IMG/VR virus record: IMGVR_UViG_3300028534_000013 | Span: 1 to 57,867 of that record | Length of the DNA stretch: 57,867 bases | Strand: one strand, 5' to 3' | Source: a virus | Shown here: piece after piece, positions 44,213 through 49,724 of the stretch | Layout: each line of letters starts with the position of its first letter | How positions within the stretch are numbered: position 1 is the first letter of the stretch | Program-made: the position numbers and the translations under genes | Notes under the pieces: generated by a model | Told to the model about the DNA's origin: nothing | Databases searched by the model: none | Seen by the model: only the letters and a program-made list of their open reading frames with translations

Positions 44213-44947
44213 GTGATTAATATTGTAGTTTCGAGTAACCTTAAAACAGATTTAGATTATTTATTGCTAAGGTACACCATTCGGAGTATAGAAAAAAATT
44301 TTAAAGAATCTGATTATATAATACACGTTTTCTCAAACTTTAATCCAGGATTTTTAAAAAACATAATATACCACAAGACGCATTTCGAAAAATCTCACGA
44401 TGAACTTTTCTCTGTACACAACTCTTCAATTGTAAGTGCTGCATCAAAATTTAAAGATTTTATATTTATTCAAAGCGGAAACATAATAAATGACAAAATA
44501 ACATCTATGTACACAAAGAACGCAAAAGGGTTTAAAAAAGATAAAAACTTAATTGACGAAATAAGTGATGTTTATTCTAAATACGCATATATGACATATA
44601 TTGAAATGTCGACAAACTTTGGGCACGATGAAACTATTATTACAGATTTGTTTTCACCTCAATTTATAAAATCTAAAAATTTCAATAAAATGATGGACAG
44701 TTTTAGAACAGTTCAAACAAACAATTATAATGCTTTAATGATATATAGAAATTTTTTTAAGGCGGTAAAAATTACAAAAATAAACAAAATGAACAGTTTT
44801 ATAGTTGATGAAGACACTTATTATTCTTTTATGAAAAAATTTAAAAAAGATAAAGTGTTTTTCATTGAAAAATATGGGTTAAAAAACCCTATTGTAAAAA
44901 TGTATATAGAAAAAGAATTTGGGGATAAATGCTCTTTTGAAAATTAA
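44213..44947 (+). CDS. Stealth-family (CR2-like) protein, degenerate
   Basis: LLRYTIRSIEKNF..IHVF...PGFL resembles ELRYSLRS..P.WL; NDD motif absent. Confidence 0.5.
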   Translation: MINIVVSSNLKTDLDYLLLRYTIRSIEKNFKESDYIIHVFSNFNPGFLKNIIYHKTHFEKSHDELFSVHNSSIVSAASKFKDFIFIQSGNIINDKITSMYTKNAKGFKKDKNLIDEISDVYSKYAYMTYIEMSTNFGHDETIITDLFSPQFIKSKNFNKMMDSFRTVQTNNYNALMIYRNFFKAVKITKINKMNSFIVDEDTYYSFMKKFKKDKVFFIEKYGLKNPIVKMYIEKEFGDKCSFEN

Positions 44948-45201
44948 TGCTTATCTGTAACACCTAAATACTTCTCAGCAGTTCTTAAACCTGCAAGCAC
45001 TCCTCCTGTGATTAAAATATCGTTTAATCTTGATATTACCTCAGGCGGCAATTCTATATGTATCCCAAATCCTGACAACACCACATAAGCAATAGGGTAT
45101 ATAACATATATCAATACTACAGATGTAACTATTGCTGCAGCTAATGTTGGCCTCCATGTAGGGTTTATAAAATTTACTATTTTTTCTACTATAGGGTTCA
45201 T
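44944..45201 (-). CDS. Holin, GTA_holin_3TM family
   Basis: WRP motif, hydrophobic helices, GLRTAEK C-terminal signature. Confidence 0.8.
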   Translation of the reverse strand: MNPIVEKIVNFINPTWRPTLAAAIVTSVVLIYVIYPIAYVVLSGFGIHIELPPEVISRLNDILITGGVLAGLRTAEKYLGVTDKH

Positions 45202-46244
45202 TTTGTTTCCTTTTTAGCTGGAACGGTTATTTTTATAATAGTTCCATTTTCGTCCGAACTAACTATTTCTTCGTTTCCATTTGCTGAATTTATTATTTCT
45301 TTACACAAATACATTCCAAACCCTCTTCCATCGCCTTTAGTGCTTTTGCCTAAATCCCATATATTACCAACTACGTCAGCCGGTATTCCTTCTCCGTTAT
45401 CTATTATATAAAACGTTAACATTTTGTTTTCGTAATCATACGATATGTATTTTATTTTAACTATTGAGGCGTTTGCGTCTAAACTGTTTTGTATATGGTT
45501 GTTTAAAACATTTAGCATTTCAACAGGCTTCATTGTTGTTAAATAGAAAAATTTAAGCTCTTCAGAAATATAATAATCAAAATTATATTTGTTAAACATG
45601 CTAAACATTGAAAAAACGTTGCTTGCTATATTGTATAGAGAGTCTTGGTTTTTTAGTTTGTTGTCTTTTATGCTTTTTATCATTCCTAATGTTTCAAACA
45701 TGTTGTTTATTGAGTTCTCTATAAGAGATGTGTTTGTTTGTATGTCCTGTATAAGCTTAACTTCTCCGCTACAATATCCTGTTAATGTACAGTTTTCACA
45801 ATCTTTTGTCTGTTCGCTGCATCCGTAAACTATTCTGTCTATATTTCTTTTTCCGTTTTTCTTTGCGGACGATACTAGAGTTTTTATTATTTTGTTATTT
45901 TCTTCAAACGCATTTCTTACAGCTATTAAAGGGCTCATTAATTGATGGTCTATATTTTGCATTAACGAATATGTTATCTTGTATGATAAAATATTCTTTT
46001 CTTTGTTTAAATATGTTTCAAATGCTATTTTAAAAAGGTTTGATATTTTATATAGAAAAACAAGAAAACTTGAAACAATAAACAATGATTTTATCATCCA
46101 CATCATATGCCCTTTTCCACAACAAGGACATCTGTTCAAATATTCAAACAAAAGTTCTATCAGGAATATTGACGCTATAAAAAACAGTGTTATCTTGATG
46201 GCTTCATGTATGTGTTTTTTTGATTTATTGTAACATCTAAACAT
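45198..46244 (-). CDS. Membrane sensor histidine kinase
   Basis: 2 TM; H-box DHQLMSPL; N-box NHIQNSLDA; DNGEGIP; STKGDGRGFGM. Confidence 0.9.
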   Translation of the reverse strand: MFRCYNKSKKHIHEAIKITLFFIASIFLIELLFEYLNRCPCCGKGHMMWMIKSLFIVSSFLVFLYKISNLFKIAFETYLNKEKNILSYKITYSLMQNIDHQLMSPLIAVRNAFEENNKIIKTLVSSAKKNGKRNIDRIVYGCSEQTKDCENCTLTGYCSGEVKLIQDIQTNTSLIENSINNMFETLGMIKSIKDNKLKNQDSLYNIASNVFSMFSMFNKYNFDYYISEELKFFYLTTMKPVEMLNVLNNHIQNSLDANASIVKIKYISYDYENKMLTFYIIDNGEGIPADVVGNIWDLGKSTKGDGRGFGMYLCKEIINSANGNEEIVSSDENGTIIKITVPAKKETK

Positions 46245-46245
46245 G

Positions 46246-46947
46246 TCAATCCTTAAATAGGCATTCTATAAAAAATTTTGCCCTATCATCAAAGTAAGGC
46301 GTTTTTGTTAACACATTGTTTTTTAAATAATCTTCACCCAATAGTTTTATTATTTTTTCTTTTTCTTTTGAAAAGTGATTATCAAGATAGCATCCGGTAA
46401 AAATACATGTTTTTACGTTAGGGTTTATTTTGTGTAAATAATACACAAGGTCTATTCCGTCCATTGTATATTTTCTTCCGTTTTTTATAACAGATTCTCC
46501 GAATACAATATCTACTATTGCGTAATCAAGAGAACATAATGTTTTGTCGTAATTATCACATGTTTTTTGTATTCTATATGGAGCGTAACTATCTACTATG
46601 GGCCTTATTTCAACGTCTTCATAGCTGAGTTTTACTGAGTCTATAAGTTTCAAAGTTTCAATATCTGCTGATATGTCAACATTTTTAGTTAGTATTCTTT
46701 TTAAATCTTTTAAGACTAACTCTGTTACACCCTTGTTGTCATCAGTTACTAAAATATGCTTCTTGTCATAATCTTTAAACCCGCAAAAATAACTAAGGTC
46801 TTCCCATTTTTTTAGTTTTTCAAACGTTTCTTTTTGAAGCTCTTCTTTAATTTTGGATATTTCAAATATATCTTCTTCTGTTATTTCTGATTTGTTTTTA
46901 TTTGAAAAAATATTAACCAATTTGCTTTTTATGTTTTTAAGGTTCAT
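46246..46947 (-). CDS. Response-regulator receiver protein without output domain
   Basis: ILVTDD, AIVDIVF, MDGIDL, IFTG, LTK. Confidence 0.8.
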   Translation of the reverse strand: MNLKNIKSKLVNIFSNKNKSEITEEDIFEISKIKEELQKETFEKLKKWEDLSYFCGFKDYDKKHILVTDDNKGVTELVLKDLKRILTKNVDISADIETLKLIDSVKLSYEDVEIRPIVDSYAPYRIQKTCDNYDKTLCSLDYAIVDIVFGESVIKNGRKYTMDGIDLVYYLHKINPNVKTCIFTGCYLDNHFSKEKEKIIKLLGEDYLKNNVLTKTPYFDDRAKFFIECLFKD

Positions 46948-47411
46948 TTTGTTCCTTTTACGCTTGAAGTTATGTCTTTTACGGCTTTTGTTGATTGAAT
47001 CATTGCCTTTTCATCTAAATGGTAAAAAATCATTAAACCACCAATTAAAAGTAAAGCACCCAATACTACTGAAAAAGTTATTTTAAACGGAGAATCGGTA
47101 AAAAACTGGTACCATTTTCTTTTTGTGTCTATTTTGTTTTTATCATATAAAATATAAATATATTCTTGTTGTATGTCGATAATGCACCATGTCATTTCAG
47201 AAATTGTGAGTTTTAATTTTTTCTGTTCTGTCTCTATCTTAGAGGCTAAAGTTATTATAAAATCACTAAGTTCTTCTATATTTTTAGCTTTGGTTAAATT
47301 ATAATATGTTTGCAAGTCGCTGCTTGACATAGTGTCATTGTGTAATTCTTTTAAAACATTTTTCAGTTTTTCAATATATTCTTTTAGTTTAGCATCTTTA
47401 GCTGAAGACAT
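46944..47411 (-). CDS. Coiled-coil protein with C-terminal TM helix
   Basis: First gene of TCS-holin operon; ITFSVVLGALLLIGGLMIFY. Confidence 0.7.
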   Translation of the reverse strand: MSSAKDAKLKEYIEKLKNVLKELHNDTMSSSDLQTYYNLTKAKNIEELSDFIITLASKIETEQKKLKLTISEMTWCIIDIQQEYIYILYDKNKIDTKRKWYQFFTDSPFKITFSVVLGALLLIGGLMIFYHLDEKAMIQSTKAVKDITSSVKGTK

Positions 47412-47435: not shown

Positions 47436-47441
47436 ATTATA
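47436..47441 (-). promoter_or_regulatory. -10 box TATAAT for TCS-holin operon
   Basis: 25 nt upstream of ATG 47411, T-rich upstream. Confidence 0.45.
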
Positions 47442-47495
47442 ATAAATATTTTGAAGGTGCCAAAAAAAATAAAAAAAAGAGCGGAAAAAAAGACG

Positions 47496-47921: not shown

Positions 47922-48313
47922 TTTTGTTCCTTTATTATTTGTTTTAATGTTTTGTCTTTATCGCTTACCAATAATGACAAGCAAGACCATACGTCGCTTA
48001 TTTTAATTAGACTTTCAGCTATACTTAACTCATCTGAAATTAATGATACTAGATTTTTTATAGCCTCTGCTTCAGGATTTGAAAATGATGAGTTTTCGTT
48101 ATAAAAAACATCATATAAAAGAGCCGGGGAATGCGCTCCTTTTACTAAGGTTAATTTTATTACATTAACGAGCATCTTGATTTCATCAAAGTCATCTTCA
48201 GCCATTTTTAAAGCAGCTTCTTTTAACGCTAAAGACGCATACAATTTAAAAGATGATTGGTCAACTTTTGGTTTAATAACTTCAAAAGCGTTAATTAAAT
48301 CATTCATTTCCAA
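47918..48313 (-). CDS. Hypothetical helical protein
   Basis: Coupled between groEL-like gene and ssb. Confidence 0.65.
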   Translation of the reverse strand: MEMNDLINAFEVIKPKVDQSSFKLYASLALKEAALKMAEDDFDEIKMLVNVIKLTLVKGAHSPALLYDVFYNENSSFSNPEAEAIKNLVSLISDELSIAESLIKISDVWSCLSLLVSDKDKTLKQIIKEQK

Positions 48314-49724
48314 CCTCCACGTTTACTATATATGAAATATTATTTAAAAGAATGGCTAATTCTGATGATGATTTTAACACCTCTTCAATTGTTAAAGCCG
48401 AATCGTACACGTTTTTTGCTTTATCAACAGGAAATCCGTTTTTTTCAATCTTATTTCTTATCGCTGAAAAGATTTCAACAAACATGCTTGCGTCAGATGT
48501 TATATCATTAAGTTTTAAGTAACTTTCTCCAGCCCCTGGCATTGCTCCGTATATTTTTGATTTGTAGTAAGAATGCAATGCGTCGTCAACTCTGTCTCTT
48601 ATTTCTTTTGCTTTGTTCTCTATTGACGTTCCTATTATTATCTTTACCACTTCTCTTTCCAGTATTGCCAATATTGCCCTGTACTTAGCAGCTTCATAAT
48701 CGTCTTTTGAATCACGGAGCATTGCTTTGTATTTCTCTATAAGTTTTAAATCTTTTTCGCCTTCTATATCCTCAACAGTTAAATTGTTATCATAAAAAAA
48801 TGCTTTTTTAGGAGGAACAAAATCATCAATATTAACATCTGACAAATATGCTCCATAATCAATTCCGCTAATTGGAGCATTTAAAGATGATGATAATATT
48901 TTAACAATGTCAACATTTTTCATAGTATCATCACCTCCCACAACAACAGGCAATATATTCATTACACCTTGAAGGTGATTTATGGATAAAACGCCTATTG
49001 CGTCATCACTGAATCCATTTGAAATAATGATTAAATTTTTATATCCATATTCTCTTGCTTTCTCAAGAAGCTCAACGCACTCTCTTTCAGTTTCAACGGT
49101 CCCAGCATTGCATACTATCAATGGAGAAGACATTTTGATTTTGCTTTGATTTTCAAATACTTCAGCAGCCGTTTTACACCTTATTAATACGCCATTTATT
49201 ATTTCAACTTTTGATTTTGAGTTAAGCTTTGTTTCAACAACTATATTATCTGATGTTGATAATTTTAGGGCCGAATTAATTAAATTGGCTAAATTTTTGT
49301 CTCCTGATACGGCAGTAAGAACAATTTTATCTTTGATTTTATCAATATCTTTTATTTTGATTTTATCAATCTTATTAACCATTTCTTCTATTTTTGAAGA
49401 TAACTGTTCTTCTGTAATTTGATTGTTTTTTAACGCATTTAACATTTTTTCAGCCAATACAATCGTTGATGTGGTTCCGTCCCCAGCTCTCCTTAATACA
49501 GATTCTGAAGCTTCTTTTATAACTGTTACCACATTGTTTACATACGGGTTGTTGCTTTTTATAAGCCTTAAACATGAAACACCGTCTTTTGTTGTATGAA
49601 CATTGTGTTCATTTCCTATTACAACGTATTTCCCTGATGGCCCTAAAGTCTCAGAAACGAATCCGCTTATGTCTGACAAAATTTTTTCTATTGCAGTTGG
49701 TTTTGCAAAATTGTACATTTCCAT
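48300..49724 (-). CDS. groEL: Divergent GroEL-like chaperonin
   Basis: TLGPSG, TKDGVS, AGDGTTS, DRVDDAL, PGAG; 474 aa, no GGM tail. Confidence 0.85.
   Translation of the reverse strand: MEMYNFAKPTAIEKILSDISGFVSETLGPSGKYVVIGNEHNVHTTKDGVSCLRLIKSNNPYVNNVVTVIKEASESVLRRAGDGTTSTIVLAEKMLNALKNNQITEEQLSSKIEEMVNKIDKIKIKDIDKIKDKIVLTAVSGDKNLANLINSALKLSTSDNIVVETKLNSKSKVEIINGVLIRCKTAAEVFENQSKIKMSSPLIVCNAGTVETERECVELLEKAREYGYKNLIIISNGFSDDAIGVLSINHLQGVMNILPVVVGGDDTMKNVDIVKILSSSLNAPISGIDYGAYLSDVNIDDFVPPKKAFFYDNNLTVEDIEGEKDLKLIEKYKAMLRDSKDDYEAAKYRAILAILEREVVKIIIGTSIENKAKEIRDRVDDALHSYYKSKIYGAMPGAGESYLKLNDITSDASMFVEIFSAIRNKIEKNGFPVDKAKNVYDSALTIEEVLKSSSELAILLNNISYIVNVEVGNE

Follow-up and report, generated by a model that had tools for sequence, protein, structure and literature searches.

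A class I histidine kinase with a four-cysteine insert at its DHp hairpin tip, in an apparently undescribed phage-borne receiver-kinase family

The window analyzed here, meaning the whole stretch of 57,867 nucleotides, is the first 57.9 kb of a 176,653-bp IMG/VR virus record (IMGVR_UViG_3300028534_000013) that CheckV rates as 100% complete. On its minus strand, a gene for a receiver-only response regulator is followed by a gene for a sensor kinase with four closely spaced cysteines. We describe this protein as a class I histidine kinase bearing a novel Cys4 cap, in an apparently undescribed phage-borne family that pairs receiver (REC) proteins with histidine kinases (REC-HK). The cysteines lie between the two helices of the dimerization and histidine phosphotransfer (DHp) hairpin. 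In our judgment the balance is even as to whether they form a metal-binding sensory cap at the hairpin tip, and we slightly favour a redox-labile Fe-S site over a Zn-thiolate site.

The four cysteines, C142-x6-C149-x2-C152-x5-C158, begin 42 residues downstream of the predicted phosphoacceptor His100 and fall within a 37-residue insert between the DHp helices. The original prediction had located them in an extension of the hairpin, about 40 residues past His100, and the translation, the AlphaFold2 model and an alignment to ThkA agree with this placement. When a profile of the kinase clade was compared with ThkA (3a0r), the H-box aligned and the alignment resumed at helix α2, with ~44 extra residues between the two. 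In the AlphaFold2 model the insert (residues 127-163) is irregular apart from one short helix at 134-140, with predicted local distance difference test (pLDDT) scores of 52-65. Cysteine makes up 1.1% of residues in the open reading frames (ORFs) of at least 100 residues in this genome. The exact spacing occurs once among the 588 six-frame ORFs of the 176,653-bp genome, where our own arithmetic gives an expected count of ~1e-3; by these counts the motif is no chance match. The only other dense cysteine run in the genome lies outside the window, in a 166-residue ORF on the minus strand (G000:C1:169521-170021), and reads CSCHICAPCSKCSDERMMC.

To find relatives we used a word-indexed search over 5.8 billion clusters and an exhaustive HMMER search over 1.84 billion representatives. 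The clade that carries all four cysteines comprises ~13 known sequences (P0001, the kinase of this phage, through P0010, with P0024, P0027 and P0159, a member of the P0008 cluster). All are metagenomic, their clusters hold 1-2 members each, and a profile search with the clade profile found no additional four-cysteine members. Throughout the clade, at 26-89% identity, the cysteine group occupies the same place, directly after a conserved A-x3-G-[KN]-R-x-[IL]-D-[KR]-x-x-[YF]-G motif. G131, R133, D136 and G141 of this motif are invariant in the eight closest sequences, and R133 and D136 are nearly invariant in the wider clade. Conservation of the four cysteines in homologues had been named as a check on the original prediction; they are kept in every clade member, down to ~26% identity. 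Across an alignment of 20 sequences, C149 and C152 never vary and C158 is nearly invariant.

Three sequences that are 89% identical overall were compared segment by segment. The cysteine loop (residues 142-163, window 45756-45821, minus strand) is their least conserved segment, at 64-73% identity, compared with 95-98% for helix α1 and 91-96% for the catalytic ATP-binding (CA) domain. All four cysteines are nevertheless kept among these relatives, and the C142 codon differs only synonymously (TGC/TGT). Strict retention of thiols inside a fast-evolving loop argues that they are a real ligand set. The rapid change of the loop also suggests an exposed surface, possibly one under diversifying pressure.

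The remainder of the protein has the parts expected of a histidine kinase. Pfam HATPase_c matches residues 242-344 with 51.6 bits against a cut-off of 26.4, and the top Foldseek matches of the AlphaFold2 model (mean pLDDT 76) are the DHp-CA kinases ZraS, YycG/WalK and HK853. H100 is invariant in 20 of 20 aligned kinases, within an H-box of the pattern NIDHQLxxP. In the CA domain N245, N249, N253, D282, G284, G308, G310 and T335 are invariant, and G286 and G334 nearly so, in the 20-sequence alignment. Judged by these motifs, the protein is a class I histidine kinase with a DHp hairpin and a GHKL CA domain, its catalytic motifs intact. The DHp domain is divergent, with Gln in place of the usual acid after the His. 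Pfam HisKA (PF00512) gave no match to the whole kinase at E≤1 or to residues 70-200 at E≤10, and NCBIfam matches to the whole kinase span the CA domain only, far under their cut-offs. H-box residues 99-101 (window 45942-45950, minus strand) read D-H-Q in the core four-cysteine clade; almost all of the remaining family members have H-H-E or N-H-E. With Asp directly before the His in the core clade, the acid may have moved, or the chemistry of the kinase may be altered.

Upstream of the H-box there is little that could serve as a conventional input domain. The N-terminus, with four Lys/Arg residues, suggests a cytoplasmic location, and the external loop between the first and second transmembrane helices (TM1 and TM2) has only ~13 residues; an extracytoplasmic sensor domain is absent. 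A Pfam scan found no PAS, GAF or HAMP domain in the kinase. In the AlphaFold2 model TM2 continues unbroken through the H-box, helix α1 spanning residues 46-126 and reaching 26 residues beyond His100, roughly a dozen more than in EnvZ or HK853. By hydropathy and the positive-inside rule, everything after TM2 should be cytoplasmic. The coordinates of these features are collected in Table 1. Within the external loop, residues 37-46 (window 46107-46136, minus strand) read NRCPCCGKGH in the kinase of this phage, KCPCCDNGH in one relative at 89% identity and KYSYFVAGN in another. This patch of three cysteines plus His on the outer face of the kinase is a very recent gain or loss.

Table 1. Features of the kinase gene and its operon, in window positions
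Feature	Position	Strand	Basis or detail
Histidine kinase gene P0001, 348 aa	45198..46244	-	ORF; Pfam HATPase_c; Foldseek
Cys4 motif C142-x6-C149-x2-C152-x5-C158	45771..45821	-	51 bases, translation CSEQTKDCENCTLTGYC
DHp hairpin insert, residues 127-163 (AKKNGKRNIDRIVYG, then Cys loop)	45756..45866	-	AlphaFold2 model
H-box NIDHQLMSPL	45927..45956	-	His100 at 45945-45947
DHp helix α2, residues 164-196	45657..45755	-	AlphaFold2 secondary structure; aligns to α2 of ThkA and HK853
CA domain, N/G1/G2/G3 boxes	45210..45638	-	Pfam HATPase_c
TM helix 1, residues 15-33	46146..46202	-	Kyte-Doolittle 19-residue window peak 2.29
TM helix 2, residues 47-65	46050..46106	-	Hydropathy
Receiver-only response regulator P0154, 233 aa	46246..46947	-	AlphaFold2 pLDDT 86; Foldseek
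First operon gene, 155 aa, C-terminal half hydrophobic by eye	46944..47411	-	ORF
Small protein, 85 aa, hydrophobic by eye	44944..45201	-	ORF
Promoter-like site TTGGCA-16-TATAAT, 11/12 matches, upstream of the four-gene row	47436..47463	-	Consensus scan only
Terminator-like hairpin after the 85-aa gene	44876..44889	-	Consensus scan only

The spacing of the cysteines in this kinase and its nearest relatives, C-x6-C-x2-C-x5-C, is that of the [4Fe-4S] loop of endonuclease III (EndoIII) and MutY, and the original prediction had read the motif as a loop of this type. It did not survive comparison. Across the clade the first gap is x6 in P0001-P0004, x7 in P0005, P0006, P0010 and P0024, x5 in P0007, x4 in P0008, x8 in P0009 and x3 in P0027. 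The second is x2 everywhere except P0008 (x3), and the third is mostly x5, with x4 in P0005 and P0010, x7 in P0004 and x8 in P0027. Overall this amounts to C-x3-8-C-x2-3-C-x4-8-C, and the hydrophobic residue two positions after the third cysteine, a Leu here as in the glycosylases, is kept in part only. The 17-position Pfam model of the loop, EndIII_4Fe-2S (PF10576), matched all 14 control genomes, 13 of them above cut-off, but neither this genome (at E≤10) nor the isolated insert gave a match. The glycosylase loop forms the C-terminus of an HhH-GPD domain, which the kinase lacks, whereas the kinase cysteines sit at the tip of a helical hairpin; a search of PDB sequences with the insert returned no glycosylase. 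That a true EndoIII/MutY loop was acquired by insertion, as a homologue of the glycosylase module, is thus extremely improbable in spite of the shared spacing and Leu, and at the level of sequence such homology is effectively refuted.

The isolated insert had no Pfam match, only a chance-level ferredoxin-NADP reductase match among PDB sequences, with the cysteines unaligned, and no usable feature match in the ESM Atlas, where structural matches were short and meaningless. NCBIfam NF045718 did not match residues 70-200 at E≤10. Residues 146-172 of the kinase gave a weak local NCBIfam match to the SPASM region of a radical SAM maturase (E 0.0012). A C-x2-C-x5-C core recurs in unrelated Fe-S proteins, among them SPASM/twitch domains, WhiB-like (Wbl) proteins and AddB/Cas4 nucleases. 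The kinase loop shares this core with SPASM/twitch domains, whose full motif is C-x2-C-x5-C-x3-C, but the kinase has no radical SAM core; nor does it have a Wbl or AddB/Cas4 fold, and the likeness to these proteins is at the level of the motif.

Cysteine-rich tips of other kinds were found in the wider family. In the next clade (P0011, P0012, P0013, P0016, P0017, P0019, P0021 and P0025) the motif preceding the cysteines is kept and the first cysteine is absent, the loop reading C-x2-C-x9-10-C in most of the eight members. All eight members of this three-cysteine sister clade (L005-L010; for example L007:3702-4817) carry an extra conserved cysteine at the extreme C-terminus, in a P-[VI]-[KS]-x-C motif right after the last β-strand. 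The one clade that this residue marks also has members with one or two loop cysteines, and its presence there is to be counted as one evolutionary event. There is a hint that it could replace C142 as the fourth ligand, supplied from the CA domain.

Farther out in the family the H-box reads HHELNTP and a KMKGFKHLRYSNGNK motif is present; the hairpin tips there range from a few residues to ~60, with 0-5 cysteines. Some are of the form CxxCxxC (P0044, P0128) or Cx3Cx2C (P0027, P0032, P0090, P0149), arrangements typical of Fe-S ligands. An external domain is lacking in the core four-cysteine kinases but present in several relatives that have fewer cysteines in the loop. A FastTree phylogeny was computed from 112 DHp-CA cores, with local support values only and with the insert columns left in. 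In it P0001-P0010 form one group (support 87) to which P0024 and P0027 do not belong, and the state of three or more loop cysteines requires at least 16 changes, a rough count given that the insert columns were included. The tree suggests repeated gain or loss of cysteine-rich caps at the DHp tip within this family.

How such a cap might work can be sketched from the anatomy. The membrane-distal tip of the hairpin is formed by a 37-residue module in which a short conserved helix, RxIDRIVYG, is followed by the four-cysteine knuckle, and we interpret this module as a compact metal site in the cytoplasm. Each protomer of a kinase dimer would carry one such site at the end of the four-helix bundle, where the two tips would cap the bundle side by side. 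Because α1 extends 26 residues past the His, the cap would lie beyond the usual regulator-docking surface. Metal loss, oxidation or exchange could loosen or re-pack the tip, and the re-packed tip could shift the kinase/phosphatase balance toward Asp146 of the upstream REC protein. As the only non-catalytic cytoplasmic module of a kinase that has no other sensor domain, the cap is the best candidate for its input.

Several considerations bear on what the cysteines might bind. Clustered cytoplasmic cysteines usually bind metal, and a cytoplasmic site makes stable structural disulfides unlikely. We lean toward Fe-S on three grounds: there is a single CxxC pair, the predicted surroundings are helical and contain no β-hairpin turns, and relatives carry CxxCxxC or Cx3Cx2C tips. 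An Fe-S oxygen-sensor reading is plausible. Its most specific version, in which an O2-, nitric oxide- or reactive oxygen species-labile [4Fe-4S] cluster in the DHp core would be the input of a phage-native two-component system that reads host redox or iron state, is one we consider rather unlikely.

Other observations pull away from a sensory Fe-S cap. Variable spacing and the lack of a cluster-specific signature lean toward Zn, and the SPASM match scored 17.6 bits against a 600-bit cut-off and was seen only in the two sequences with the exact spacing, being absent with other spacings; it offers a lead at the level of the motif only. Model confidence for the insert is low (pLDDT 52-65). Tips in many family members are free of cysteine, so basic kinase function does not require the module, which might serve a structural role alone. 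The TM helices, or the two small membrane-like proteins encoded in the operon, could also provide the input.

A structural zinc knuckle, in which Zn(II) would stiffen a surface module at the DHp tip without any sensory role, is possible if on the unlikely side; such a module might dock the REC protein or another partner, or set the handedness of the hairpin. The gaps vary (x3-8, x2-3, x4-8), as in many zinc knuckles, the central CxxC is nearly invariant, the fast-evolving non-ligand residues fit a partner-contact surface, and no cluster-assembly machinery would be required during infection. A single CxxC pair with no β-hairpins predicted fits such a knuckle less well, as do the relatives with three cysteines in 7-9 residues (CxxCxxC, Cx3Cx2C), an arrangement unusual for a single Zn site, and the absence of any other input domain in the core clade.

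The cysteines might instead act as a metal-free thiol switch, with reversible disulfides within or between subunits at the dimer tip reporting thiol or quinone redox state, as in ArcB, SrrB and RegB. The two hairpin tips should be close in the dimer, the REC partner also has conserved cysteines, and kinases regulated by redox-active cysteines are known (PMC8534201). Two cysteines would suffice for such a switch, however, and the clade with three loop cysteines keeps an odd number; a cluster of four cysteines spanning 17 residues and conserved together around a CxxC core is more typical of a metal site. We regard a thiol switch as improbable.

We compared the proposed metal-binding cap with sensor kinases whose metal or redox chemistry has been described. 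RegB/PrrB has a single redox-active cysteine near the H-box that forms an inter-subunit disulfide, so that its DHp region carries the redox residue; unlike the phage kinase it has neither an insert nor a Cys4 cluster. In Chloroplast Sensor Kinase (CSK) and its cyanobacterial counterpart Hik2 the cluster is bound in a GAF-like sensor domain, away from the DHp tip where the phage cysteines lie. CSK/Hik2 is an Fe-S redox-sensing kinase (PMC6949291), and NreB and AirS are Fe-S sensor kinases for O2, redox state or sulfide (PMC13478379, PMC8774646). NreB and AirS resemble the arrangement suggested here in that a cytoplasmic Cys-ligated cluster is the proposed direct input to a histidine kinase. The cluster of NreB, from Staphylococcus and Bacillus, is held in an N-terminal PAS domain (PMC13478379) and that of AirS in a separate Cys-rich sensor domain, in contrast to a cysteine group inside the DHp hairpin, and their sequence relation to the phage kinase is limited to the CA domain. 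Two TM helices and one unbroken helix make up the phage kinase before its H-box, which leaves no PAS, GAF or separate N-terminal sensor domain to hold cysteines as in NreB, AirS or CSK.

WalK binds Zn in a cytoplasmic PAS domain (PMC6624279), and the regulatory cysteines of ArcB and SrrB lie in a PAS and a CA domain, respectively (PMC8534201). In all three, cytoplasmic metal or thiol chemistry tunes activity, and none has a four-cysteine insert in the DHp hairpin. That characterized kinases keep their clusters in PAS or GAF domains had been stated at the outset and agrees with what we found in print, where the sites of Fe-S, Zn and thiol sensor kinases are in PAS, GAF or CA domains (PMC13478379, PMC6949291, PMC6624279, PMC8534201). 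The accompanying claim of a new architecture was borne out in that we found no published sensor kinase with a metal or redox site at the DHp tip, and the phage kinase lacks PAS and GAF domains. A full-text literature search returned nothing that places an Fe-S cluster in a DHp domain, and a phrase search returned no paper on phage- or virus-encoded histidine kinases; a jumbo-phage survey had only a divergent REC domain, unrelated to kinases. Nor did we find a published description of two-component systems native to phages.

The gene immediately upstream encodes what is, on its structural model, a receiver-only regulator, extended at its N-terminus by a helical segment and bearing internal insertions. 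All top Foldseek matches of the model are receiver domains, with probability 1.00 and a target TM-score of up to 0.75. Residues D69, D70, D146 and K215 are invariant and T184 is nearly so among 12 homologues. The protein has no Pfam match, Response_reg included, and its profile gave weak Spo0F/CheY matches only in the PDB (E 0.04). Between its stop codon and the start codon of the kinase lies a single base. All nine related metagenome loci have a homologue immediately upstream of the kinase gene, and a REC gene precedes the wider-family kinase in 20 of 22 IMG/VR contigs (L035-L056), which are up to 222 kb long. Adjacency, synteny and the DD/D/T/K residues indicate that this protein is probably the cognate partner of the kinase, with Asp146 as the predicted phosphoacceptor. 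The REC protein is itself rich in cysteine. All 12 homologues examined keep C186, which follows the active-site residue Thr184 by two positions, and the five nearest partner sequences share C55, C130 and C138 as well. The REC protein could conceivably carry a redox or metal site of its own, or share one with the kinase.

We also searched the genomes of 185,579 prokaryote species, one genome per species. The four-cysteine clade had no relative among them, and the wider family was represented by two short contigs of metagenome-assembled genomes only (L057-L058), all other matches being ordinary distant kinases. On the strength of these scans the REC-HK cassette appears essentially phage-restricted. 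Megablast of the region against GenBank phages gave no match, and tblastn gave distant CA-domain matches only.

The kinase and REC genes form a row with two further genes, flanked by the promoter-like and terminator-like sequences listed in Table 1. The stop codon of the 155-residue gene overlaps the REC start codon, and the ATG of the 85-residue gene overlaps the kinase stop codon (ATGA); the former is kept only in L003 and L004 and the latter only in L003. A holin label for the 85-residue protein was not adopted, its sole family match, GTA_holin_3TM, being weak (Pfam E 0.072). PADLOC had no match for any of the four operon proteins, and Pfam scans of conserved neighbours in distant loci found nothing. 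Neighbouring genes encode an SSB, a GroEL-like chaperonin and a primase. The chaperonin gene (48300-49724, minus strand; PHROG 5725, E 9e-45) lies three genes upstream, and a chaperonin of 44% identity also adjoins the cassette in the distant relative L004. The phage DNA was found in an epibiont metagenome, which may be its source, and in runs of one other study; only a small share was found in a hydrothermal-vent metagenome, which is no evidence of habitat.

The input of sensor kinases is thought to come through dedicated domains, whether periplasmic, transmembrane, HAMP, PAS or GAF, and what is known of the DHp hairpin tip concerns chiefly partner specificity and the geometry of cis or trans autophosphorylation. 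A conserved metal or redox centre at that tip, if real, would be a new route for a signal directly into the catalytic four-helix bundle, and an Fe-S centre would be the first such sensor built into a DHp hairpin. It would also mean that a large phage adjusts its own programme to the redox or iron state of the host cytoplasm, with outputs that could include the REC-only regulator and perhaps the co-transcribed small membrane-like proteins or the timing of lysis. If phages do sense host physiology through REC-HK pairs of this kind, these pairs would represent a new layer of phage decision-making.

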